Shown here: piece after piece, positions 3,157 to 16,596 of the stretch
How positions within the stretch are numbered: the first letter of the stretch is position 1
Layout: every line of letters begins with the position of its first letter
Assembly (NCBI GenBank): GCA_946615965.1
Contig: CAMOIC010000002.1
Span: 860-64,859 of the forward strand
Direction of reading: 5' to 3'
From: an uncultured Clostridia bacterium
GTDB taxonomy: Bacteria; Bacillota; Clostridia; Christensenellales; UBA3700
Length of the DNA: 64,000 nt
The notes under the pieces: generated by a model
Databases searched by the model: none
The model's input: only the letters and a program-made list of their open reading frames with translations
Told to the model about the DNA's origin: nothing
Made by a program: the position numbers and the translations under genes

Positions 3157-3194
3157 ATACTTATATTACTATTATATATAAATAAAAGTCAAAA

Positions 3195-3213
3195 AGAATG
3201 CACTATGCACTCT
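3195..3213 (-). terminator. Possible intrinsic terminator at the end of the nrdR-lipoprotein transcript
   Basis: Minus strand AGAGUGCA-UAG-UGCAUUCU forms 8 bp including one G.U, followed by UUUUUG. The hairpin overlaps the stop codon of the lipoprotein gene. Confidence 0.4.
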
Positions 3214-4231
3214 TTCTAACTCTTACAATTGGCAAAAATCCTTTGTATGTTTCTGTATCCCTAAAATCTTCAGATACCAGCGCTGTTGATGAGATATTTC
3301 CTTGTGTTGTTACAAAATAAACAGAGGCAGCATGTTCATTTCCATATGGGGATCTTAACCACCATTCACCATACCTTCTCTCTACTTTGTCTTTTGTTCT
3401 AATTGCAAATAATACACCTTTAGCAATTGCATAATCTGAAACTTCAGTTAATCTTTTATTTGTTGCTATATCTCCACTATCTACAAAGCCATATGTTGAT
3501 CTTGTAGCTTCGTTAACACTTAGTGAATAAATCTTATCTTCTGTATTTTTTTGAACAGATGTAAATGCATTATTATTGTTGTATTTTGTTTTATTATCTA
3601 CAGTTGTTACAACAATATCCTTTACTTGATTTGTATCAAAGGCTTTTTTATAGAAAGTATTAGCAAATTTTCTTAATGTTGAATATTCATAAGAATTAGC
3701 ATATACCCATTTATCTCCGCCGTTATATTTAACGCCTTCATCATCTTTATAGAAATATCTTTCTGTAGAATCTCCTGCAATATTTGCAATGTTTTGGAAA
3801 TTAGTAATATCTAAAATCTTATTTGACATACAAACAAATGCATTGTCTTCTTTTGAATAGATGATATTCCATATAATATCTTCAACAACAAATGCGTATT
3901 CTTGACCTGCAATAACAGAACTACCATTTGAGAATGTAGCATCCTCCACACTAGGTGTTGCTGTAATTATTGCATATGTTTTTCCATTATATTTGTAATA
4001 ACCTGTTGATTCATCATATTCTCCAGTTTTGATATCACTAAGTTCTACATTCTTAGCGATTGTTTGTGGATATGAACCAAAAGATATTTGTTTTGAAGTA
4101 ACAAAAGTATAAGATAAAGAATCTTTCTCTTCTTGTTTTGTATTATCATCTTTCTTACATGCAAACAAACATGTTGAACAAATAATAGATAAAATTATTA
4201 CAACTGAAAATATTTTTATAAACTTTTTCAT
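3203..4231 (-). CDS. Putative lipoprotein, DUF6273-like
   Basis: Signal peptide plus lipobox: MKKFIKIFSVVIILSIICSTCLFA-CKKDD. Shows FGSYPQT and C-terminal YGEWWLRSP motifs that I recall from a family of gut-Firmicute extracellular proteins. The start overlaps the nrdR stop. Confidence 0.55.
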   Translation of the reverse strand: MKKFIKIFSVVIILSIICSTCLFACKKDDNTKQEEKDSLSYTFVTSKQISFGSYPQTIAKNVELSDIKTGEYDESTGYYKYNGKTYAIITATPSVEDATFSNGSSVIAGQEYAFVVEDIIWNIIYSKEDNAFVCMSNKILDITNFQNIANIAGDSTERYFYKDDEGVKYNGGDKWVYANSYEYSTLRKFANTFYKKAFDTNQVKDIVVTTVDNKTKYNNNNAFTSVQKNTEDKIYSLSVNEATRSTYGFVDSGDIATNKRLTEVSDYAIAKGVLFAIRTKDKVERRYGEWWLRSPYGNEHAASVYFVTTQGNISSTALVSEDFRDTETYKGFLPIVRVRKSA

Positions 4232-4689
4232 TATTTCTTCTCTTTTACTAAATCTTTGATTTCAGATAGCCAGCTGTTAATATCTTTAAATTCTCTATAT
4301 ACAGCAGCAAATCTAATATAAGCTACATCATCTAATTTCTTTAAGCCTTCCATAGCATATTCACCAATTTGAGATGATGTTACTTCTTGTTCTAAAGAAT
4401 TAGCAATTTTCTTTTCTATATCATCAACAAGTTTATCTATCTTTTCCATTGGAACAGGACGCTTAGCGCAAGCAGATAAAATACCTTGCTTTAATTTGTT
4501 TCTTGAGAATGGTTGTCTATCTCCATTCTTTTTAATTACAAGGATTGGAGCAATTTCAATAGTTTCATAAGTTGTAAAACGTCTGCCGCATTGCATGCAT
4601 TCACGTCTTCTTCTTATTGATGTTCCATCTTCATTTAATCTACTGTCTATAACTTTACTTTCTAGACATCCACAAAAGCTACATTTCAT
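4231..4689 (-). CDS. nrdR: Transcriptional repressor NrdR
   Basis: MKCSFCGCLESKVIDSRLNEDGTSIRRRRECMQCGRRFTTYE zinc ribbon followed by an ATP-cone. 152 aa. Confidence 0.92.
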   Translation of the reverse strand: MKCSFCGCLESKVIDSRLNEDGTSIRRRRECMQCGRRFTTYETIEIAPILVIKKNGDRQPFSRNKLKQGILSACAKRPVPMEKIDKLVDDIEKKIANSLEQEVTSSQIGEYAMEGLKKLDDVAYIRFAAVYREFKDINSWLSEIKDLVKEKK

Positions 4690-4692
4690 ATA

Positions 4693-6882
4693 TTAACTCC
4701 ATAACCAGAATTTCTTCTTTTTCTTATCGACTTGTTTACTAGTTGTTGTTTGCTTTGGTTTATTAACAGGGTTTGGTGCTTCTACTTTAGCTGCCTTTGT
4801 AGGTGTTGCAGTAGTACTTACGCTTCCTCCCTCATATTGAACCAATCTATCATAATACTCATCAAATAAATTTAAGTTTGGAATAGATATTCTATATTTC
4901 TTTGGAATAGCTTTATATCTATTCTCTAGTTTTGTATATAGTTCCCTACTTGGAACTTTTTCCCTAGGCAATTTAGAGAAATAATTGTTCAAAACATTAG
5001 CATCATTCTTATACTTTTTGTCATAACCATTAGTAAGAGTTTCAGTAAAACCTTTAACATATTTCTTATATTGGTCATCCAAATTCGTATACATCTTTTC
5101 AGCACGAATTAATTGTTCTCTTGTAGGAACTTCTGCTTCTTCAATCTCAGTTAGAACATTCTGAACTCTTGTTATTTCAGTCATCTTCATTTTCTTAGCA
5201 GCATCACCTACAACCTTTCCAATATCGCCTGTTAATTCTTGTTCATCATCAGAAAGGTTCTTATAATCTTCTTGAATTTGAATAATATCATCATAATTTG
5301 GATATTCTTTATTATTCACATAATTCAATCTTGTATTAAAGTCAGAAATCTTATTTTCTCTAATCTTCTTTTTAGCATTTAATATAATTTCTTTTAAGTC
5401 TTCAACATATTTTCTAGAAGCAGGTCCTAGTTTCTCATATAATTGGTGAATTTCTTCAATATCCTCTTCTGTTGGTCTTGGATTAATTCTAAGGTTTTGT
5501 AATGCGGTATTAACTTTTTCTGCACTTAATCTTAAATAATCATCCCTTTCTTTAACTAATCCATCAACGAAGTCCATTTTGCCACTTTGTTTAGCAAATT
5601 TAGATAACACTTTAAAGTTAATCGATTCTTTGAAATTATCATGCATAATAAGCTCTTTTGCACTTTGAGCTTGGAAATCTACAAGCAATTTATAGTACCA
5701 AATTAAGTAGTTCTCAGCATCAATAAGTTCGGCTTTTTTAATTAACTTTCCAGCTTCTTCAAAGTCACCTAAATCTTCAATAGTAACTTTGATGAGTTTT
5801 AATACAGAAACAAGTGCTGGATCCATATGTTCAACTTGCATTCTTCTTGTATCATCTAATGCTTTAGATACTTCTATTCTTTGTTGACCATAAATAGCTT
5901 CCATTAATTTTCTAATGTTATTTCTATTCTCATCAATTTCTTCTTGTTGTTTAGCATCCATATTAATAGGATGAATGATATTATTTAAAGATTCTTCAAT
6001 ATCCTTCATTAATGAGATACCATATTTCAAACCTTGCATATGAGATAACTCAATTGGTAAATCATCTGGAGTAAATCCATCAGTAAAAATAGGAATAATA
6101 CAAGCCTTATTACTACCTGGCTTTGAATCATTTAATTGTAAGAATCTCTTCCATTCGTTTTGTAACCAATGGCTTTCTAGATATTCTTTATGAGAACAAA
6201 TTAATAGCATTACTTTAGCTGTATATAAACCATAATAAATATTTGGTTCATATTCTCTAACTCTAATACCTTTTAGAGACTTTTCACTAAAGAATACTCT
6301 ATATTTTGAAGCAAGCTCAGAGTAGATTTCACTAGCTAAGTCATAATCTGTTGAGAATATGTCTGAATTTAATTCTGTCTTCTTAAAGCAGATAAATACA
6401 TCATATGGTTTTGTCGATTCAATAATCTTAGCTGCTTTTTCACGAGCATCTTCAATAATATTTAATCTATCTTGATAATCTAACAATTTCTCTGGAGATG
6501 TTTTCTTCAGATAATTCATAAATGTTAGATATTGATCAGTCTGTGTTATAGGATTTTCTTTTACTTTAAAGAATGATGGGAATAAATTGCCATTATTATC
6601 TACTTCAAGCATTACTTGTTGATCGCAAAGTAATAATCCCCAATAAGCAGCTGTTAAATCTTCTTCAGGATATTTAGCAATAATTGATTCGTACATAGAT
6701 TTAGCCTTAGAAAAGTCTGCAAATTGTCTTTGAGAATTTGCAATTCTTAAATCAATAAACATCTGGCTATCTGCTTGTCTTTTAGTATATGTGTTACCGC
6801 AAGATTCACAGATGTATAAATCACCCTCTCTTCTACAGTGGGTGCTTAAACATACCGGACATTGAAAGGCTTCTAATTTCAT
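4693..6882 (-). CDS. Zn-ribbon / helical / TIR-domain protein with four 58-aa repeats and a polybasic-aromatic C-terminal tail
   Basis: N-terminal CPVC...CESC ribbon. TIR-like core at about aa 159-290 (YDVFICFKKTE...VMLLICSHKEYLESHWLQNEWKRF). Repeats at about aa 457-680. Ends KKKKKFWLWS. RBS AAGGAG upstream. Confidence 0.75.
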   Translation of the reverse strand: MKLEAFQCPVCLSTHCRREGDLYICESCGNTYTKRQADSQMFIDLRIANSQRQFADFSKAKSMYESIIAKYPEEDLTAAYWGLLLCDQQVMLEVDNNGNLFPSFFKVKENPITQTDQYLTFMNYLKKTSPEKLLDYQDRLNIIEDAREKAAKIIESTKPYDVFICFKKTELNSDIFSTDYDLASEIYSELASKYRVFFSEKSLKGIRVREYEPNIYYGLYTAKVMLLICSHKEYLESHWLQNEWKRFLQLNDSKPGSNKACIIPIFTDGFTPDDLPIELSHMQGLKYGISLMKDIEESLNNIIHPINMDAKQQEEIDENRNNIRKLMEAIYGQQRIEVSKALDDTRRMQVEHMDPALVSVLKLIKVTIEDLGDFEEAGKLIKKAELIDAENYLIWYYKLLVDFQAQSAKELIMHDNFKESINFKVLSKFAKQSGKMDFVDGLVKERDDYLRLSAEKVNTALQNLRINPRPTEEDIEEIHQLYEKLGPASRKYVEDLKEIILNAKKKIRENKISDFNTRLNYVNNKEYPNYDDIIQIQEDYKNLSDDEQELTGDIGKVVGDAAKKMKMTEITRVQNVLTEIEEAEVPTREQLIRAEKMYTNLDDQYKKYVKGFTETLTNGYDKKYKNDANVLNNYFSKLPREKVPSRELYTKLENRYKAIPKKYRISIPNLNLFDEYYDRLVQYEGGSVSTTATPTKAAKVEAPNPVNKPKQTTTSKQVDKKKKKFWLWS

Positions 6883-6891
6883 ATAGAATCT

Positions 6892-8328
6892 CTACTCCTT
6901 ACATTTAAACTCTTGCATTGGTTTTTTCTTGAATTCTATATCCATTAAACCAAGTTGAGTTTTAATTATTTTTCTCATTTCTACTGCAGGCTGTAAGCAA
7001 TATTTCTTAAATAATTCCTTATCTACCTTATCTACATTATCCCAGCATGGGAATAATAATTTAACGAATGCAGTTGTTATTCTCTTTACCGCTTTTGTAT
7101 CTCTTGTATCTGCATCATTTGGCACAACTACAAGTTCATCAACAATTGCTTTTTCTATTACATCTTCTCTAAGAGCATGCATTATTTCTGAGAAATATTC
7201 AGTATTCAATGCCCATCCATTTACTTTCATATTCTCATTCATTCTAGGTACATCCCATCCTTTAATAAATCCGTGGAATCTATCTATTAATGCAGAATCT
7301 TCAAATAACGATGGCAACTCTTCTAGCATGTTAACATTTGTGTCCATCTTTTCTTGTCTTATATTTCCAAGAACGATTACTCCGGCTTTTCCTGCACCTG
7401 ATTTTAGTCCGACATTAAACGTTCCTGATTCAAGATATCCCTTCATTGCACCACGCATTTCATCAATGTCTGGAAACTTAATTGTAGATATCTCATCAAG
7501 TGCTACGTAGTCATAATATGAAACAAGTCCTTCTTGATGCTTATTCATATCATAGAACATTTTTGCTCTTGTCATTACACCGCCAGATACAAGCCATCCT
7601 TTCTTACTAATTTGAGAAAAGATATAACTCTTTCCAGTTCCTTTAGGTGCTAGTTCCATAAGGTTCAATCTTTCTTCAACAAATGGAAGCAATCTTGTAA
7701 GCATTGTTAACTTTTCAAGTTCTGTTTTAAATCCAGCTGCATTGTAATCAATAGCACCTAAGATTACATCTATCCATTCATCAATAGTAAATTGCTCTCT
7801 TGCCTTCTTAAAGAATTCTAGATCTATCTTATATGGTCTAAAATCTTTAAACCCAACAAGAACAATCTTTCCTTCTTGTTTCTTACCTTTAGTTATATTT
7901 TGATATTCTAAATCTAGAATTCCCCAAAACTCGCCATCAGATACAAGGAGTTCTTTTTTATATTTTGTCCAAACACTTTGTGGTATATGTGTTTGTTGGT
8001 ATGTTATCCCAAAATCTGGAAGAGCGAATGTTACTTCAGATGTCTTAATATCTATATTTACTGAAAGCTTAGCTAAAAACCTTACTTTTTCGCCAGATAT
8101 TAATTTATCTAATATGGCATTCCACTCATCTTTACGAGGCATTACGTCTTTAATTTTTTCTAAAACAAAATTAACGTTAACATTTCCATCGGCATCTGCA
8201 TACTTTTTAATAAACCAGTCTCTTATAAAAGCTGGTAAATTAAGAGATGAAAATACACCCTGTAGTGATGACTTTTTAACTATCATCCCATCAAAGCTTT
8301 GTTTTAGCTTTAATTCCACATCGCTCAT
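6892..8328 (-). CDS. BrxL-like AAA+ protein (BREX Lon-like family N-terminal and ATPase regions, no Lon protease domain)
   Basis: 478 aa. Walker A LAPKGTGKSY, Walker B-like YVALDEIS. The blocks FTIDEWIDVILGAI, SALIDRFHGFIKGWDVP and the N-terminal FDGMIVKKSSL...LPAFIRDWF are collinear with BrxL as I remember it. The protein ends where the BrxL protease domain would begin. Confidence 0.65.
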   Translation of the reverse strand: MSDVELKLKQSFDGMIVKKSSLQGVFSSLNLPAFIRDWFIKKYADADGNVNVNFVLEKIKDVMPRKDEWNAILDKLISGEKVRFLAKLSVNIDIKTSEVTFALPDFGITYQQTHIPQSVWTKYKKELLVSDGEFWGILDLEYQNITKGKKQEGKIVLVGFKDFRPYKIDLEFFKKAREQFTIDEWIDVILGAIDYNAAGFKTELEKLTMLTRLLPFVEERLNLMELAPKGTGKSYIFSQISKKGWLVSGGVMTRAKMFYDMNKHQEGLVSYYDYVALDEISTIKFPDIDEMRGAMKGYLESGTFNVGLKSGAGKAGVIVLGNIRQEKMDTNVNMLEELPSLFEDSALIDRFHGFIKGWDVPRMNENMKVNGWALNTEYFSEIMHALREDVIEKAIVDELVVVPNDADTRDTKAVKRITTAFVKLLFPCWDNVDKVDKELFKKYCLQPAVEMRKIIKTQLGLMDIEFKKKPMQEFKCKE

Positions 8329-8340
8329 GTAGATTCTCCT

Positions 8341-9786
8341 TTATAGGCCTAAGTCGTCTTCTTCTAAGCCTTTATTAAATTTAATCTTTTTTCTAGCGAT
8401 TTCATTTTGTGATGAAATAATAACTTCGTACTCTCCTGGTTTTTCAATATTCAATGGTTCAGATACCCATGAATTGAATTTCTTAGAACATAGATAATTT
8501 GCCCCATTTACTTGCAAATATACTTTTTCTAGTTCCTTAGATACAGAAAACTCAACACTTGGCTTCTCCCCTGCCTTCATATTAATAACATCTTCAGCAA
8601 ATGTTACTTCTACAGTTTCATCTTCTTTTTCTTTCTTTACAGTTCCGCCAGTTCTTCCAGCATATTCTTCAAAAGCTTTTAAATCTTTTTGTTTTACTGT
8701 AGGTGGAACTTTAGATAATGCTTTAACAAAATCTTTCATAGTAATATCTGTTAAAACATCAGTCTTAATATAATTGTTTAGAGGATCTTCTTTTGCTCTA
8801 TCACAAACTTCTGCAATATCTGCACCAGAATAACCTTCTGTTACTTTAACAAGCTTCTTAATATCTACATCTTTTCCAAGAGGAACATTATTTAATTGTT
8901 TATTAAACATATATTCTCTTGCTGGAGCATCAGGCAAAGATACATAAATCTTTTCACTAAATCTTCCAGAACGAACAGCTGCACTATCTACATCCCAAGG
9001 TCTATTAGTAGCACCAAGTAATAATAGGTTATCTGTCTTTGATGCAAATCCATCGATTTGTTGTAAGAATTCATTTACACGCTTATCATTGTGCATATCT
9101 TGGCCACGTTGTCCAAATAAAGAATCCATTTCATCAATAAAAATGATAGCAAGCTTATCTTTTTTAGCAGCTTCAAATAATGAAGAAATATTCTTTTCAC
9201 TCTCACCTACATATTTAGATAAGATATCTGATCCTTTAATTGCATAGAATGTAGCACCAACTTCGCCAGCAATGGCTTTTGCTATTAAAGTCTTACCTGT
9301 TCCTGGAGGTCCATATAACAAGACACCACCACCCATTTTCTTACCATACTTGGCATATTTTTCTGGGTACTTAATAGGATTAATCATTCTAGTTAAGATT
9401 GTTTTCTTAACTTCTTCTAGTCCAGCAACATCAGAGAATTTGATATCTGGGATAGCAGAACCTTGCCAAATCTTGCCATTATCTTCATCTTGTTCTTGTT
9501 GTTGACCACCTTGAGAATTATCTCCAGTTCCTGGAACACGTCTAACAGCTGGACGTTTTCTATCTCCACATGCTTCTGCGTTTTCTTGATACATTTTAGC
9601 TTTTTTAATAAGCGATGCCTTTAATTGTTGTGAAGAATATTTACTTGTTTCTAATGCCTTTTGTGCAGCAAGCATATAATACTTCTTAGCAGCAGTATAG
9701 TTGCCAGCAGCCTGACATCTAATTGCATTATTGTAGTAAGTATCCATCATTTCTCTGTAGAAAGACACATCCTTAACTTCAGCCAT
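8341..9786 (-). CDS. Vps4-like AAA+ ATPase (MIT-like N-domain, linker, AAA core, extra C-terminal beta-rich domain)
   Basis: MIT-like three-helix N-terminus YYNNAIRCQAAGNYTAAKKYYMLAAQKALETSKY...KKAKMYQENAEAC. Walker A GPPGTGKT, pore loop KYVGESEK, Walker B IIFIDEMD, ATNRPWDVDSAAVRSGRF. About 100 aa of unrelated C-terminal sequence. Confidence 0.8.
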   Translation of the reverse strand: MAEVKDVSFYREMMDTYYNNAIRCQAAGNYTAAKKYYMLAAQKALETSKYSSQQLKASLIKKAKMYQENAEACGDRKRPAVRRVPGTGDNSQGGQQQEQDEDNGKIWQGSAIPDIKFSDVAGLEEVKKTILTRMINPIKYPEKYAKYGKKMGGGVLLYGPPGTGKTLIAKAIAGEVGATFYAIKGSDILSKYVGESEKNISSLFEAAKKDKLAIIFIDEMDSLFGQRGQDMHNDKRVNEFLQQIDGFASKTDNLLLLGATNRPWDVDSAAVRSGRFSEKIYVSLPDAPAREYMFNKQLNNVPLGKDVDIKKLVKVTEGYSGADIAEVCDRAKEDPLNNYIKTDVLTDITMKDFVKALSKVPPTVKQKDLKAFEEYAGRTGGTVKKEKEDETVEVTFAEDVINMKAGEKPSVEFSVSKELEKVYLQVNGANYLCSKKFNSWVSEPLNIEKPGEYEVIISSQNEIARKKIKFNKGLEEDDLGL

Positions 9787-9796
9787 TTATTACCCC

Positions 9797-10390
9797 TTAG
9801 TTGTTATTTGTTTCTTTAATCTTTTTGCTAATTTCATCTAATTGCTTATCAATATCATCATCACTAACTTCATCCATAGCTAGTTCTTGATCGATAAGAC
9901 TATTAATTTCGTCATCAGAAATGGCATTTGTATCACCTGTATGAGCATTGAACTCTCCTTCTGACATATCTAGATAAATATCCATTTGTTCAGTTTGAGT
10001 TTGAACACCTTCCATAGCGGCTTCAAATTGTTGTTGAACTTTAGCAAAGTCCTTAGAATTTGTTAACTTTGTCATTTCCTTAGATAAAAGACTTAAACCA
10101 CCTAAGAATTCATGAGTCATAACTGTCATATCTTTCATTTGAGAAGTGATTTCAAAGTTCAATAACATCTCTTGAGCTCTTTTTTGTTGAGCCATAGTCA
10201 TTTTTAAACCAGTAACAGCTAAATTATATTGGTTCATTAAACCAAGCTTTTTAGCACGCTTTGCTGCTGAGATATATACTTTCTTTTGATCTTCTAGTTT
10301 AGAAATTTGTTTATTCATTTGGTTAATAGTCTTTTTAACCAACATTTTCTTTTCTATTTCTTTCTCTTGTTTAGTTTTAAATAATCCCAT
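9797..10390 (-). CDS. ESCRT-III superfamily protein, Vps2/Vps24/CHMP3-like
   Basis: 197 aa. MGLFKTKQEKEIEKK N-terminus, then a basic helical hairpin (AAKRAKKLGLMNQYNLAVTGLKMTMAQQKRAQEM), then KDFAKVQQQFEAAMEGVQTQTEQMDIYLD, and an acidic C-terminus ending in an amphipathic DDDIDKQLDEISKKIKE helix. Confidence 0.65.
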   Translation of the reverse strand: MGLFKTKQEKEIEKKMLVKKTINQMNKQISKLEDQKKVYISAAKRAKKLGLMNQYNLAVTGLKMTMAQQKRAQEMLLNFEITSQMKDMTVMTHEFLGGLSLLSKEMTKLTNSKDFAKVQQQFEAAMEGVQTQTEQMDIYLDMSEGEFNAHTGDTNAISDDEINSLIDQELAMDEVSDDDIDKQLDEISKKIKETNNN

Positions 10391-11007
10391 TATTCGTCAG
10401 TCTCCTCAAATTCTTTTTCTATTAATCCTGCTTCACCGCTTTCTTCAACGGCAGCAATTGTTTCTTCTTGTTCTGCAGTATCTTGCTCTTCAAACATAGC
10501 AAGTAATTGATCATCATTCTTACCTGCACCGTAAATTGTTTCATTTAAATCATATTGCATTGCAACTTCATTAAATGTATCGTCAGATGTTGTTAATATA
10601 TCTTCTTCCTTAACTCTTAAATTCAATGCCTTATTTAAGTACTTAGCAAGTGCCTTTTGGTCACCTAATAACTTATTAATTGGAATTTTACCTGTATTTG
10701 CATAGAATTCCTTATCTTCCATAGCATCCTTTAACTTATTCATTAAGTTGATGTTATAGACAAGATACATACCTCTTTGTGCATCACGTTGTTTTTGAGC
10801 TTTTAGGTAATTAATCTTCTTTGCATATAAAAGTCTTATCTCTTGAGATTTCTCAGCTTTACCCTTCTTTAAAAGTTCTTCAATTTCAGCTGTCTTTTCT
10901 ACAATGCCATCTTCGATAGCTTCTTGTTCTTTCTCAAGTTTGATAATAGAATTTACAACTTCTTCTCTTTTTAATTTCTTAAATCTAAAATATGATAAGA
11001 ATCCCAC
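10390..11007 (-). CDS. ESCRT-III superfamily protein, Snf7/CHMP4-like
   Basis: 205 aa. MGFLSYFRFKK N-terminus, coiled-coil hairpin LLKKGKAEKSQEIRLLYAKKINYLKAQKQRDAQ, and a strongly acidic tail (EEQDTAEQEETIAAVEESGE...EFEETDE). The stop overlaps the start of the next gene. Confidence 0.55.
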   Translation of the reverse strand: MGFLSYFRFKKLKREEVVNSIIKLEKEQEAIEDGIVEKTAEIEELLKKGKAEKSQEIRLLYAKKINYLKAQKQRDAQRGMYLVYNINLMNKLKDAMEDKEFYANTGKIPINKLLGDQKALAKYLNKALNLRVKEEDILTTSDDTFNEVAMQYDLNETIYGAGKNDDQLLAMFEEQDTAEQEETIAAVEESGEAGLIEKEFEETDE

Positions 11008-11018
11008 AAATAGCCTCC

Positions 11019-11372
11019 TTATTCGTTCGCGCGTCTTTCAACAACTAATTGATTTAAATCTCTTAAATTGTGATTAAGCGCTAAATCACTTCTTAATTTT
11101 CCTCTAGACAAGATTAGCTTTAGAGAATCCAATTTATCTGATATCTCTTTATCTATTCTCTCTACTTCTTCTGAAACAACAGGATTTGAATATTTAATTT
11201 CGATATATAAATCCTTTAATTGTTGTTCAATAGAATGATTACTCTTTGCTAAAACAATTAGCATATTAATCTTTTCTGCATTTTTATCTAAAGTTTTCTT
11301 AACTTGCATAACTTTAGCAACATGTGCAGGAGAGATATCTATAATTTCTTTATCTTTAACAAATAATCCCAT
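11019..11372 (-). CDS. Small all-helical protein sharing the MGLF N-terminus (function unknown)
   Basis: 117 aa, MGLFVKDKEII..., heptad-like helical sequence. Start overlaps the stop of the SPFH gene (TAATG). No family recognised. Confidence 0.45.
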   Translation of the reverse strand: MGLFVKDKEIIDISPAHVAKVMQVKKTLDKNAEKINMLIVLAKSNHSIEQQLKDLYIEIKYSNPVVSEEVERIDKEISDKLDSLKLILSRGKLRSDLALNHNLRDLNQLVVERRANE

Positions 11373-12136
11373 TATTCTACCCTCGCTCCACAGTTATTAC
11401 AGAATTTACTTCCTGCGACAATTATATGGCCACATCTTGGACAAACATCTTGTTTTGTTCTTGCAGCTTTTGACTTATCCATATATCTATCTGAGATATT
11501 GACATTAGAAATTAAAAATGAAGAAATCTCTAATCCATATTCTCTATACAAAGCTTTATCTAAAGATTGTCTAATCTCATAAGACATAGCCATTTTATCT
11601 TCTGCGATTCTATCTAATGGCACTTCATTAACTGCCACATATTCAAGAATGCATGGTTCAATATATGATAAGATTTTACCCTTTAGTCTTTCTTTTAAAT
11701 CTTCTAAAGAAAATCTCTTATTAACACCAACAAGTTCTAAATAGAATTGTCTTGGATTCTTAACACGAAGTTCAATTTCTCCATTAGCACCCATTTTTGC
11801 AGGATTATCTGTGATTGGATCATGAATATCAAACAATGCAGGTGTTCCCCAAAGCACTTTAACTTTGGCTGTTTTTGATATATAGAAAAACTCAATTCTT
11901 GATGGGTCTTGCTTCTCTATTGAGAATGGAGAATTCTTATCTTGTAATTTATAAACGCCAGGTTTTATAGTTTCTAAAGCAATGCCATCTTTAAGAACAA
12001 TAGCAACATGAGTTTCGTCTATAATCACTTTTGAGTCCGAATTAATAGAAGAGATACTCTTTCTTATGAATAAATCATCATTAGAGATCTCACTTTTGTT
12101 TAAAAACACAACTTTTGAGTCTGTAGTTGTAGCCAA
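11372..12136 (-). CDS. SPFH/Band-7-like protein with C-terminal Zn-ribbon (YdjI / COG4260-like)
   Basis: 254 aa with a TTG start 7 nt after AGGAGG. Blocks THVAIVLKDGIA...PGVYKL, KVLWGTPALFDIHDP and GLEISSFLISNVNISD parallel B. subtilis YdjI as I recall it. C-terminal CPRCGH...CNNCG ribbon. Confidence 0.7.
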   Translation of the reverse strand: MATTTDSKVVFLNKSEISNDDLFIRKSISSINSDSKVIIDETHVAIVLKDGIALETIKPGVYKLQDKNSPFSIEKQDPSRIEFFYISKTAKVKVLWGTPALFDIHDPITDNPAKMGANGEIELRVKNPRQFYLELVGVNKRFSLEDLKERLKGKILSYIEPCILEYVAVNEVPLDRIAEDKMAMSYEIRQSLDKALYREYGLEISSFLISNVNISDRYMDKSKAARTKQDVCPRCGHIIVAGSKFCNNCGARVE

Positions 12137-12193
12137 TTTTCCTCCTACATCTTGTGGTTTAAAAACAAATCTACCACAATATGTAACAATAAT

Positions 12194-12222
12194 ATTTTAT
12201 ATTAAATATTTAAGTCAGTCAA
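12194..12222 (-). promoter_or_regulatory. Sigma-A-type promoter of the seven-gene operon
   Basis: Minus strand TTGACT (12222-12217), 17 nt, TAAAAT (12199-12194), about 50 nt upstream of the TTG start. The -35 lies inside the perfect palindrome GTCAATATTGAC (12218-12229). Confidence 0.5.
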
Positions 12223-12285
12223 TATTGACCTATTCTAAGGGATTTATATCAAATTTAACTAAACAATTTCTTAAAAAATTTCATT

Positions 12286-12321
12286 AAAAAAGGGCGAGAA
12301 ACTACTAAGAGTCGCTCACCC
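12286..12321 (-). terminator. Intrinsic terminator downstream of ftsZ
   Basis: Minus strand GGGUGAG-(16 nt)-CUCGCCC followed by UUUUUU, about 40 nt after the ftsZ stop. Confidence 0.6.
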
Positions 12322-12360
12322 TCTTTTGGGTATATATGTTGTTGTAAACTTTTTAGTCTA

Positions 12361-13686
12361 TTAGATGTTTCTGTTCATCATTCTTGAAAGCCAAGGAGCA
12401 GTCTTCTTACCTTGTGGGTTTGTTGTTGGCTGTGGTTGGCTTGGTTGAACAGTTTGTTGTACAGGTTGAACTGGTTGTTGTGGTTGTTGTTGGTTTTGTC
12501 CAAAAACTGAATCATAACTTACAGGTCTTGCTGTAAATCCAGGATATGCTTGATAACCACCTGGGATTGGTTGTCTATATTGAGGTTGTTGAGGTTGTTG
12601 CTCATAATCTTTATCTGCAGCTACCTCTGCACCTTCTGTACCAATAATGTGTTGAGATACATGGTAAGTACTTGCAAATGTAGAATTATCCATAATTGCA
12701 TGATCACCATATTGGTTCTTGTAGTTCTTGAATGGGCTTCTTTGTTGATTCTCTTCAAATCCAGTAGCAACAATAAGAACTTTAACCTTATCTCCGAAGC
12801 TTTCTTCAAATCCTGTACCAAAGATAATGTTTGCATCAGCAGATACACATCTTCTTACAAGTTGCGAAGCATCATTAGCTTCTTTTAATCCTAATGTGTT
12901 ACCACCAACGATATATAGTAATACGCCAGTAGCACCAGAAATATTTGTATCTAGTAAGTTGCTCATAATAGCAGTTTCAACAGCCTTTCTTGTTTTATCT
13001 TTACCTTCAGCTTCTCCAATTGCTAAGTGAGCCATTCCTTTTCCTTTCATAATTGTCTTTACATCAGCAAAGTCAAGATTCAACTTTGTAGATGTTGCAA
13101 TAAGGTCTGTTAAACCTCTAATTGCATCTCTAAGTACAGTATCAGCATGCTTAAATGCGCCCATAAAGCTTACATTGTCACCTAAAACCTTTAATAAGTT
13201 GTTATTAGGAATAACAATCATAGAATCTACGTTTTCTTTTAATTGAGCGATACCTGATTCTGCGTTCTTCATTCTTACAGCACCTTCAAATTCAAAAGGT
13301 TTTGTAACAACGGCAACTGTTAAAATGTTCTTTTCCTTAGCCATTTGAGCAATAACCGGAGCTGCACCAGTTCCAGTACCACCACCCATTCCGGCTGTGA
13401 TAAATAACATATCAACATCGTTTAAATAGTCTCTAATTTCATCTCTTGACTCTTCTGCTGCGCCTTTACCAACGTCTGGTCTAGCACCTGCACCAAGTCC
13501 CTTTGTTGTTGTTTTACCAATAGCAATCTTATGAGGTGCTTTAGAAACCTCTAATGCTTGGCCATCAGTATTAACTGCAACGAATTCTGCGCTGTCAACT
13601 CCAGCTTCGATCATTGAATCAACGGCGTTACAACCGCCACCGCCGACACCCATTACTAGGATTTTTGCTCTTTTGTTCTCTGACAT
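12361..13686 (-). CDS. ftsZ: Cell division protein FtsZ
   Basis: ILVMGVGGGGCNAV, GGGTGTGAAPV and a Q/P-rich linker, with C-terminal peptide APWLSRMMNRN. I prefer the ATG at 13686 behind AGGAGGG over the track start at 13737, which would overlap ftsA. Confidence 0.95.
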   Translation of the reverse strand: MSENKRAKILVMGVGGGGCNAVDSMIEAGVDSAEFVAVNTDGQALEVSKAPHKIAIGKTTTKGLGAGARPDVGKGAAEESRDEIRDYLNDVDMLFITAGMGGGTGTGAAPVIAQMAKEKNILTVAVVTKPFEFEGAVRMKNAESGIAQLKENVDSMIVIPNNNLLKVLGDNVSFMGAFKHADTVLRDAIRGLTDLIATSTKLNLDFADVKTIMKGKGMAHLAIGEAEGKDKTRKAVETAIMSNLLDTNISGATGVLLYIVGGNTLGLKEANDASQLVRRCVSADANIIFGTGFEESFGDKVKVLIVATGFEENQQRSPFKNYKNQYGDHAIMDNSTFASTYHVSQHIIGTEGAEVAADKDYEQQPQQPQYRQPIPGGYQAYPGFTARPVSYDSVFGQNQQQPQQPVQPVQQTVQPSQPQPTTNPQGKKTAPWLSRMMNRNI

Positions 13687-15801: not shown

Positions 15802-16596
15802 TTAACCAAAGATTTCCCCTACTTTATCGCATAAACCATCAAACCAGTTTGTTGTTGTATCATATTCATAATCAACAACCTTAGCTGTTTTTTCTAATAC
15901 TTCAGAATTACCATTTTGATCTACAGTATAGTAAACTGTATCAGCTGAATATGCAGCAGTAGCAGCAGTAGCAGCGGATACTTCTGTAGCACCTGTAGCA
16001 GCAACAACATTTACGATAATTAAAGTTGCGCATACAGCAATAATAAAGAAGTAAACTGCGATAAGTAACTTTGTCATCTTATTCTTTGATCTACTCTTTT
16101 GTGGAGCAATCTTTTCATACTCTGGAGCATAAACAGCTTGATCCATTGAAGAATATTGATATGAAGCTACGTTATTTTGTGCTTGAGCGTAATAGTTTTG
16201 AGCTTGATATCCTGTTGTATATGTTGGTTGATAAGTATTTGCATAATTATATGTAGGTGCTTGATATCCAGCATTAAATGTTGGTTCTGCATATGTAGCA
16301 TTGTTAGCATATGTTTGATAATTTTGAGCTTGTTGATATGAAGGTGCTTGTTGATATGAATTAACTTGTTGATTCATATATTGAGCTTCATAGTTGTTAA
16401 CAGGAGCTACATTATCGCTAACTGGTGCTTGCATATAAATATCATTTGGCACTTGATATGTAGATCTAATATTAGGAGTATAGTTTGGAACTTCTGAGTA
16501 ATTAGATACTCTACCAGAATATGCTGAATATGAATTGTATTGAGGAACTGATGTTTCTCTTCTTTGAACTCTATCAATTGTTGTTGATTCGTACAT
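15802..16596 (-). CDS. Q/N/Y-rich single-pass membrane protein in the FtsL/PBP slot of the dcw cluster
   Basis: 264 aa. About 165 aa of low complexity (NYEAQYMNQQVNSYQQAPSYQQAQNYQTY...), one TM (LLIAVYFFIIAVCATLIIVNVV) and a roughly 65-aa C-terminal ectodomain. Confidence 0.5.
   Translation of the reverse strand: MYESTTIDRVQRRETSVPQYNSYSAYSGRVSNYSEVPNYTPNIRSTYQVPNDIYMQAPVSDNVAPVNNYEAQYMNQQVNSYQQAPSYQQAQNYQTYANNATYAEPTFNAGYQAPTYNYANTYQPTYTTGYQAQNYYAQAQNNVASYQYSSMDQAVYAPEYEKIAPQKSRSKNKMTKLLIAVYFFIIAVCATLIIVNVVAATGATEVSAATAATAAYSADTVYYTVDQNGNSEVLEKTAKVVDYEYDTTTNWFDGLCDKVGEIFG

Follow-up and report, generated by a model that had tools for sequence, protein, structure and literature searches.

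A TIR-domain protein with a candidate catalytic glutamate, encoded beside SPFH, ESCRT-III-like, Vps4-like, and BrxL-like genes in a Christensenellales bacterium

What might a TIR domain do when its gene lies among genes of a putative membrane-remodeling module, close to ftsA and ftsZ? Immunity in animals, plants, and bacteria relies centrally on TIR domains, and the bacterial TIR systems known to us are soluble sensor/effector pairs. The question is raised by one gene (the “TIR gene”) on the minus strand of a 64,000-nt stretch of an uncultured Christensenellales bacterium (contig CAMOIC010000002.1; “the window” hereafter, meaning the whole stretch that was analyzed). Its open reading frame (ORF) begins with ATG, 12 nt downstream of an AAGGAG Shine-Dalgarno sequence, and the 729-amino-acid (aa) product is 100% identical to a database protein (P0001; NCBI, ENA, and Logan assemblies) and has 15 full-length orthologs at 53–60% identity. 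The initial annotation, made from the sequence alone, described a multi-domain TIR protein next to a membrane-remodeling module. Coordinates of all features are collected in Table 1.

The TIR fold had been read from three stretches of the protein (YDVFICFKKTE, VFFSEKSL, and WLQNEWKRF), which lie at aa 160–170, 196–203, and 239–247, respectively, and both profile and structure searches agree with this reading. Specifically, the match of Pfam TIR_2 (PF13676) to aa 178–284 has E = 1.5e-9 and scores 38.8 bits, where the cut-off is 28. Built on 89 family sequences, an AlphaFold2 model of aa 1–330 reaches a mean predicted local distance difference test score (pLDDT) of 91 and a predicted TM-score (pTM) of 0.79. 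When this model was compared with the PDB using Foldseek, all eight matches with E <= 1e-3 were TIR domains (RUN1 at 8e-5, SARM1, and TIR-STING among them), followed by RPP1 and SPARTA TIR-APAZ, at a probability of 1.0; the target-normalized TM-score was 0.57–0.67 for isolated TIR domains. For the sequence search of PDB chains, a TIR-only profile replaced the full N-terminal family profile (A2), which was dropped because its PDB matches were swamped by TPR proteins and were uninformative for the TIR. The matches of the TIR-only profile range from 1.4e-5 to 2e-2 and include the Toll-like receptor (TLR) TIR of TLR15/2 (1.4e-5), the bacterial structure 7uxr (4e-4), and RUN1 (1.2e-3).

The profile alignment places YDVFICFK-TD on RUN1 YDVFLSFRGEDTR and the family motif W-x-x-N-E-W on RUN1 W-C-L-D-E-L. 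Therefore, E243, which had been singled out as a candidate catalytic residue, occupies the position of the catalytic Glu; its counterparts in the alignment are the Glu residues in RUN1 “SRWCLDEL” and AT1G72930 “SSWCLDEL”. Among 106 homologs, with identities down to 25%, E243, W244, and R246 are invariant (106/106), and W239 and N242 are kept in 101 and 98 sequences, respectively. Judged from these profiles and from the predicted structure, the TIR domain is genuine, with the fold and the active-site-type motif of NAD+-cleaving TIRs.

The part of the protein in front of the TIR domain likewise bears out the first description, which had placed a CxxC...CxxC ribbon at the N-terminus. The four cysteines (C8, C11, C25, and C28) are kept in 99–103 of the 106 homologs, and AlphaFold2 predicts short strands at 16–19, 22–25, and 31–33; a match to the zinc ribbon of ribosomal L37Ae was obtained with the family profile, and the Pfam zinc-ribbon matches are weak. 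The following region (aa 34–156) is modeled with helices at 40–53, 57–70, 77–87, 116–128, and 130–156 and strands at 90–94 and 100–104 (pLDDT 81–98). A TPR_6 match in this region lies below its cut-off (E = 1.6e-4), and W81, L85, D95, and P102 are nearly invariant across the family. In the AlphaFold2 model, the zinc ribbon, the helical region, and the TIR form one packed unit, to which we refer as the head.

In addition, about 400 aa of clade-specific sequence follow the TIR. The first portion can be aligned with the cluster-linked paralogs of two more distant loci (L018 and L024, described below) up to about aa 490–508, and the family profile over it matches TPR proteins. The tandem repeats further on were detected by pairwise local alignments against shuffles (z = 7.0, 6.8, and 4.6), and the repeat region is kept in the orthologs. 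When the C-terminal 289 aa were searched alone, only fragments of orthologs were matched, with no relatives outside the orthologous group. The polybasic-aromatic C-terminus, to which peripheral membrane anchoring had been ascribed, is present and conserved: in 14 of 14 orthologs K722, K723, W726, and W728 are invariant, and the ortholog ends read KKKKxWLW or KKKxWFW. No hydrophobic segment and no ectodomain were found in the window TIR protein. A role of the tail as an MIT-interacting motif for the Vps4-like ATPase was considered and rejected by inference, the tail being basic-aromatic and not acidic/leucine or proline-rich.

How widespread is this head? A phmmer search with aa 1–330 against 1.84 billion representatives, counted as clusters at 50% identity, returned 4,244 clusters with E <= 1e-10, of which 989 reach E <= 1e-30; among the 150 matches listed, the head match almost always begins at the N-terminus of proteins of roughly 200 to 1,800 aa. 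The TIR family is a large, new subfamily of a known domain, found in gut Clostridia, and cultured carriers include Lacrimispora sp. AGF001 (locus L046) and Oribacterium sp. FC2011 (P0075). The C-termini of the 108 closest homologs vary (BspA-type leucine-rich repeats [LRRs], DUF6273, TPR, SH3, MORN, Sel1, and Listeria-Bacteroides repeats), and in most homologs examined one or several transmembrane (TM) segments separate the head from this variable part. Many relatives look receptor-like because the binding domain would lie outside, followed by a TM helix, with the zinc-ribbon/TIR head inside. In many lineages, TIR-family proteins carry DUF6273 in the same polypeptide, in other Clostridia behind a TM helix. 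This domain has been described as a C-type-lectin-like domain that is mutated by diversity-generating retroelements (DGRs) in receptor-binding proteins of gut phages (PMC10743442, PMC11792537). Because DUF6273 is a DGR target in phages, we searched the window for the template/variable repeat pair of such an element and found none.

Turning to the genomic surroundings, the TIR gene is one of nine tightly packed genes, from SPFH to DUF6273, that all lie on the minus strand between ftsZ and argC. Given this tight spacing, together with a promoter-like site and a terminator-like hairpin from consensus scans (the latter the only one on the minus strand between 2600 and 12500), the nine genes look like a single operon. 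At its distal end, the nrdR ATG lies 3 nt past the TIR stop codon, with its GGAG inside the last two TIR codons, and the nrdR stop codon overlaps the DUF6273 start. Directly upstream of the TIR gene, the BrxL-like protein scores 434 bits with TIGR02688 (cut-off 329) and matches the PADLOC BrxL model at E = 2e-201, and it is without a protease (Lon) domain. Among the operon proteins, no PglZ, BrxC, PglX, or methyltransferase and no further BREX model match was found, and none of the neighbors of the TIR gene is a ThsA, cyclase, Argonaute, or STING gene.

The combination of a TIR with a membrane module, called unusual in the initial annotation, turns out to extend well beyond the window. Using iterated hidden Markov models over all ORFs of the fetched loci (67 species-representative TIR loci), we found an SPFH gene near the TIR gene in 38/67 loci, or in 15/23 when only loci with at least 6 kb on both flanks are counted. 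The SPFH gene is always on the same strand as the TIR gene, at a median distance of 734 bp, and a homolog of the small helical protein p117 lies between the two in 29 of the 38 SPFH-linked loci. Two to five tandem TIR-family genes, with variable LRR, DUF6273, SH3, or MORN C-termini, occur in 20/67 loci. In Lacrimispora sp. AGF001, the unit consists of three genes, for an SPFH protein with SHOCT, a 229-aa protein, and a 552-aa zinc ribbon-TPR-TIR-TPR protein; the 229-aa protein (L046, 9295–9984) carries four hydrophobic segments toward its N-terminus and resembles p117 at its C-terminus. Because the SPFH/p117 linkage recurs, and because of this three-gene unit, we conclude from gene content that the ancestral unit is SPFH-p117-TIR; the ESCRT-III-like/Vps4-like pair would be a later gain in Christensenellales, and BrxL, alone or together with a protease, a gain in some lineages. 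Literature searches on TIR with ESCRT, Vps4, SPFH, band-7, or BrxL returned no paper describing TIR-SPFH or TIR-ESCRT-III-like-Vps4-like-BrxL combinations, and a search on Christensenella with ESCRT returned no description; relative to the literature searched, both combinations are new.

Some further features of these loci deserve mention. Homologs of p117 placed between SPFH and TIR genes were detected in 36 loci. In the examined loci, p117 is the most faithful partner of SPFH, and it has in common with the Lacrimispora 229-aa protein a helical C-terminal motif, K-D-L-x-x-x-I-[KR]-Y-S-[ND]-P. In seven loci (L037, L053, L056, L059, L060, L066, and L074), 2–5 tandem TIR genes, many of them TIR-TM-DUF6273 fusions, stand beside a single SPFH-p117 pair. 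SPFH-p117-TIR units are also found in two contigs of non-Firmicutes metagenome-assembled genomes (MAGs), labeled Holophagales (L061) and Sodaliphilus (L062), through either horizontal transfer or a binning error.

Given this setting, we tentatively propose, with confidence a little short of even, that the window protein is a cytoplasmic, membrane-peripheral TIR enzyme at the inner membrane face, activated by oligomerization, that acts as the effector or signal generator of an envelope-surveillance module. A role in conflict or envelope surveillance is suggested by the variable sensor-like ectodomains, by the tandem arrays of paralogs, and by the association with BrxL and a protease. In the window clade, the TM part would be replaced by the repeat arm, presumably helical, and the KKKKxWLW tail, the latter docking on anionic lipid, to which the conservation of the tail and the TM helices of the paralogs lend indirect support; the zinc-ribbon/helical part would keep the TIR monomeric. 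An envelope trigger (phage attack or membrane damage) would concentrate the protein on the SPFH/ESCRT-III-like scaffold; relatives may sense this trigger through their lectin-like or LRR ectodomains, the window system possibly through its separate DUF6273 lipoprotein. The repeat arm would dock on the assembly of SPFH, p117, and the two ESCRT-III-like proteins (E3a and E3b), and TIR-TIR assembly, which enzymatic TIRs need, would complete the active site as in SARM1, plant TIR-NB-ARC-LRR proteins (TNLs), TIR-STING, and TIR-SAVED. E243 would then cleave NAD+, resulting in depletion or in an ADP-ribose-derived signal, while the Vps4-like ATPase would remodel the ESCRT-III-like polymer and the BrxL-like ring ATPase might add a DNA-linked function.

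Several observations weigh against this proposal, and the first concerns E243 itself. In the profile alignment, the TLR15/2 TIR also has W-C-x-x-E, with its Glu at the E243 position. Animal TLR TIR domains are non-enzymatic, and since they keep the same Glu, this residue alone is no proof of catalysis; read from the alignment, the Glu at E243 is a necessary but insufficient sign of it. The protein could instead be a scaffold, that is, a non-enzymatic homotypic assembly module at the membrane like the TLR/MyD88 TIRs. That the TLR15/TLR2 TIR is the best PDB match of the sequence profile, and that many relatives have the receptor-like order of ectodomain, TM helix, and cytosolic TIR, is consistent with such a role. 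However, the best structural matches (RUN1, SARM1, TIR-STING, and SPARTA) are enzymatic, and the conservation of E243, W244, R246, and N242 exceeds what is usual for a packing interface. Moreover, to our knowledge, the bacterial TIR domains assayed so far are, as a rule, NADases. We consider the scaffold explanation improbable.

A different enzymatic activity was also weighed. Foldseek matches the model to DNPH1 (E from 7e-3 to 5e-2), and a fold search of BFVD, which gave nothing below 1e-3, includes viral nucleoside 2-deoxyribosyltransferases and CMP hydrolases above that value. Together with the embedded and translationally coupled nrdR gene, these matches would fit a nucleotide-processing hydrolase (similar to DNPH1, nucleoside 2-deoxyribosyltransferase, or the plant TIR 2',3'-cNMP synthetases) tied to the adjacent NrdR regulator of deoxynucleotides. 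Nevertheless, the DNPH1-type matches are weaker than the TIR matches, Pfam assigns TIR_2, the beta-A and alpha-C motifs can be matched residue by residue with plant TIRs, and nrdR is linked to the cluster only in the window clade and not in other cluster loci, which leaves this explanation very improbable in our view.

The second group of observations against the proposed enzyme at a membrane scaffold concerns its putative ESCRT-III-like partners. Foldseek E-values of E3b to ESCRT-III proteins are weak (about 0.05–0.6), and the sequence profiles of E3a and E3b gave only chance-level matches (ClpC and SusD) in the PDB. Neither protein has a Snf7 or PspA Pfam match, and no PspA_IM30 was found in Pfam/NCBIfam for E3a, E3b, or p117. 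On the other side, the AlphaFold2 model of E3b (pLDDT 75) shows five helices (7–48, 52–109, 113–149, 159–174, and 177–196) in the ESCRT-III layout, and its top Foldseek matches are CdvB (E = 0.055, probability 0.98), CdvB2, CHMP2A/3 (probability 0.99), Asgard ESCRT-IIIB, and CHMP1B, with PspA and Vipp1 absent from the top 50. Both E3a and E3b have acidic tails, and the E3b C-terminus is an amphipathic helix. Using approximate sequences, hhalign aligned the E3b family with CHMP3 in register from residue 1 (P = 0.005) and with Escherichia coli PspA over only 20 columns (P = 0.05), which we treat just as a lead. The adjacent ATPase matches Pfam AAA (E = 6.8e-42) and Vps4_C (33.7 bits against a cut-off of 21.3), and the NCBIfam CdvC model spans its residues 10–376 (E = 2e-61, below its equivalog cut-off); MIT gives a weak match to aa 1–110 (E = 0.42), and an ortholog fragment has a precomputed MIT match labeled “weak”. 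Because the fold leads for E3b combine with a Vps4/CdvC-like neighbor, the ESCRT-III assignment of E3a and E3b is likely on these models rather than proven. The E3b family comprises 941 clusters at 90% identity (53–77% identity among the full-length matches listed) and has no Pfam family.

Third, the locus resembles a housekeeping set rather than a mobile defense island, since its site between ftsZ and argC is fixed and its divergence is no faster than that of FtsZ/FtsA. Ten orthologous loci (L001–L010) from Christensenellales-type MAGs, six of them species representatives, share as far as their contigs reach the order FtsA-FtsZ-(spoIIGA-sigE-sigG-PRC in some)-SPFH-p117-E3a-E3b-Vps4-BrxL-TIR-NrdR-DUF6273-ArgC-ArgJ. 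The TIR-nrdR-DUF6273 order is kept in 8/10; on the other two contigs (L008 and L009), which are short, only Vps4-BrxL-TIR-nrdR is covered and the sequence stops inside nrdR or just past it. Compared with the window, identity is 57–70% for FtsZ (full-coverage matches), 56–67% for FtsA, 74–81% for ArgJ, 80–90% for NrdR, 78–82% for BrxL, 61–70% for Vps4, and 53–60% for TIR. On this comparison of sequences, the operon of the window clade is inherited vertically at housekeeping rates. A mobile defense island in the window was accordingly rejected, as flanks and divergence indicate vertical inheritance in the clade. It may be added that the BrxL-like ATPase is more conserved among the orthologs than FtsZ.

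In more distant Christensenellales, the same cluster occurs in other chromosomal places and orders, and ESCRT-like and Vps4-like genes accompany TIR in at least five arrangements or chromosomal contexts. Examples are TIR (3 TM)-SPFH-p134-E3a-E3b-Vps4 (L018), SPFH-p111-E3a-E3b-Vps4 (701 aa)-TIR (3 TM)-DUF6273 (L024/L025), and, in very abundant gut species (L079/L080), SPFH-p137-E3a-TIR (1 TM)-E3b-Vps4-trypsin-like protease-BrxL-TIR (8 TM). The cluster-linked TIR paralogs outside the window clade are integral membrane proteins with 1–8 TM helices, with the exception of the second TIR copy of L080, which resembles the 8-TM protein broken in two; in L081, the partner is a 1,255-aa protein without the W..NEW.R motif. 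In L024/L025, a gene of its own, directly after TIR, encodes DUF6273; in the window clade, the separate DUF6273 gene stands after nrdR and encodes a lipoprotein. In L079/L080 (11123–13361), the trypsin-like protease gene precedes BrxL, as if standing in for the missing Lon-like domain.

A domesticated or housekeeping role would fit the slow divergence and fixed site seen in the window clade. In that case, the SPFH/ESCRT-III-like/Vps4-like proteins would form a lineage-specific remodeling or division machine and the TIR would be a regulatory subunit (reading NAD+ status or producing a local NAD-derived messenger), with no part in immunity. The site between ftsA-ftsZ and nrdR-argCJ is indeed fixed wherever both flanks are covered, the operon diverges at the level of FtsZ/FtsA (BrxL even less), nrdR is translationally coupled within it, and E3b is highly conserved. 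Furthermore, no PADLOC model matches the TIR (E <= 0.1), SPFH, p117, or E3 proteins, and a tblastn search with the head found no match in the phage and plasmid collections, both of which also count against the proposed surveillance role. Nonetheless, other Christensenellales place the cluster among sugar-metabolism or unrelated genes, outside the division locus; gene content shifts, with BrxL and the trypsin-like protease coming and going and one or two TIR genes present; and the tandem TIR arrays with variable sensor-like domains across Clostridia are atypical for housekeeping genes. We regard this housekeeping explanation as rather unlikely, though more probable than the scaffold and hydrolase explanations. 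Finally, the tail to which our proposal assigns membrane docking could be a protein-binding peptide, and its codons overlap the nrdR ribosome-binding site.

Comparison with known systems helps to place the envelope-surveillance proposal. Plant TNLs (RUN1, RPP1, and L6) and SARM1 have the same fold and give the best Foldseek matches, and their beta-A YDVF-x-x-F-[KR] and alpha-C W-x-x-x-E align residue for residue with the window TIR. However, identity is only about 16–20%, and the window protein is without the NB-ARC/LRR or ARM/SAM partners; it has instead an N-terminal zinc ribbon and helical/TPR-like domain, a bacterial host, and a proposed link to the membrane. Among bacterial TIR defense proteins (Thoeris ThsB, TIR-STING, TIR-SAVED, SPARTA TIR-APAZ, SpbK, and AbTir/TcpB), which have in common a TIR domain with the Glu, the likeness is structural to the SPARTA TIR and TIR-STING and at the profile level to 7uxr, 7uwg, and TcpB. 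The window system differs from all of these by its partners (SPFH, p117, ESCRT-III-like, Vps4-like, and BrxL-like proteins), and its TIR protein is outside every system modeled in PADLOC. Like TLRs, many family members have a TIR on one side of the membrane and an LRR or lectin-like domain on the other, joined by a single TM helix; unlike in TLRs, whose TIRs are scaffolds, the TIR is N-terminal, so that the order is inverted, and the window protein has neither TM helix nor ectodomain.

The neighbors, too, resemble known systems in part. The short, type-4-like BrxL of BREX is matched over the full length of the window protein by its N-terminal and ATPase domains, without the protease domain; such a short form has been described for type-4 BREX (PMC12839542). 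In contrast to BREX, the operon has no PglZ, BrxC, or PglX, and related loci have a separate, preceding trypsin-like protease gene. PspA/SPFH stress systems of the YdjI type, in which YdjI localizes PspA (PMC10936438), likewise encode a Band_7_1-type SPFH protein with ESCRT-III-superfamily-like coiled coils, whereas the window operon has no PspA_IM30, its E3b is nearer to CdvB/CHMP than to PspA/Vipp1 by Foldseek, and it adds Vps4-like, TIR, and BrxL proteins. As in the archaeal Cdv/ESCRT-III-Vps4 system, there is a CdvC/Vps4-like AAA ATPase with Vps4_C and there are two neighboring proteins, each about 200 aa long, with acidic C-termini and a likely ESCRT-III-type arrangement of helices (modeled for E3b); here, however, the host is a bacterium with FtsZ/FtsA, CdvA is absent, MIT is weakly detectable, and SPFH, TIR, and BrxL are extra.

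The locus bears on ESCRT evolution, as Vps4/CdvC-like and ESCRT-III-like genes occur here in a bacterium that also has FtsZ/FtsA, while a 2025 review holds that a Vps4-like ATPase “appears absent in bacteria” (PMC7619361) and only rare transfers, lacking Snf7, are noted in an mSystems paper (PMC11237479). A connection between NAD+ signaling and membrane remodeling could also be tested with this locus, and a TIR family that is mostly membrane-anchored in the homologs examined and gene-linked to SPFH suggests an unstudied, membrane-centered mode of TIR action. Experiments are feasible because the carriers are abundant gut commensals and cultured organisms encode family members. A broader reading, which we find doubtful, is that gut Clostridia have an envelope-immunity or repair system in which TLR-like TIR receptors act at SPFH platforms and, in Christensenellales, are wired to a bacterial ESCRT-III/Vps4 pair and BrxL. 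If so, NAD-derived signaling or NAD+ depletion would be coupled to membrane scission or repair (e.g., shedding of phage-engaged or damaged membrane), giving a prokaryotic counterpart of the Toll-like receptor topology and of ESCRT membrane repair in eukaryotic cell-death pathways, as well as a clear example of ESCRT-III working with Vps4 in bacteria.

Table 1. Features of the TIR gene and its operon (window coordinates)
Feature	Coordinates	Strand	Basis or remark
Whole TIR gene	4693..6882	-	729 aa plus stop; ORF list
Zinc ribbon, aa 6–33 (C8, C11, C25, C28)	6784..6867	-	Cys conservation, AlphaFold2, weak Pfam zinc-ribbon matches
Helical TPR-like region with conserved beta-hairpin, aa 34–156	6415..6783	-	AlphaFold2
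TIR domain, aa 159–300	5983..6408	-	Pfam TIR_2, Foldseek, TIR-only profile
E243 codon, motif W239-x-x-N242-E243-W244-x-R246	6154..6156	-	Translation; candidate catalytic Glu
Post-TIR helical region, aa 301–465	5488..5982	-	AlphaFold2 helices 291–303, 308–329
3–4 tandem repeats of ~57 aa, aa 466–690, P-x-x-[ED]-[DQ]-[IL]...Y-x-x-L	4813..5487	-	Alignments versus shuffles
Variable low-complexity linker, aa 691–719	4726..4812	-	Length and sequence differ among orthologs
Polybasic-aromatic tail KKKKKFWLWS, aa 720–729	4696..4725	-	Translation; proposed peripheral membrane anchor
Promoter-like site upstream of SPFH gene	12194..12222	-	Consensus scan, 10/12 matches; consensus match only
SPFH (Band_7_1) protein with C-terminal zinc ribbon, first operon gene	11372..12136	-	Band_7_1 E = 1.6e-19, Zn_Ribbon_1 E = 3e-7
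p117, small helical protein	11019..11372	-	Co-occurs with SPFH and TIR; no Pfam match
E3a, 205-aa coiled coil with acidic tail	10390..11007	-	ESCRT-III-like by context; 50–71% identity in cluster loci
E3b, 197-aa ESCRT-III-like protein	9797..10390	-	AlphaFold2 and Foldseek
Vps4/CdvC-like AAA ATPase	8341..9786	-	Pfam AAA, AAA_lid_3, Vps4_C
Short BrxL-like ATPase, directly upstream of TIR gene	6892..8328	-	BrxL_ATPase E = 1.3e-113, BrxL_N E = 4.3e-28
nrdR, between TIR and DUF6273 genes	4231..4689	-	Pfam Zn_ribbon_NrdR, ATP-cone
DUF6273 protein, lipoprotein-type signal peptide (...LFAC)	3203..4231	-	Pfam DUF6273 E = 3.4e-16
Terminator-like hairpin after DUF6273 gene	3182..3226	-	Consensus scan; consensus match only

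Two minor observations concern the ftsZ side of the operon. In L003 (1914–4454), L004, and L007, spoIIGA-sigE-sigG and a PRC-barrel gene lie between ftsZ and SPFH; in the window (12136–12361), L001, and L005, ftsZ adjoins the operon directly, with no sporulation genes between, which suggests that the sporulation genes were lost or relocated in part of the clade. In addition, a 264-aa protein encoded between ftsQ and its neighboring gene in the window (15802–16596, minus strand) is very rich in Q, N, and Y and has one hydrophobic segment near residue 185.

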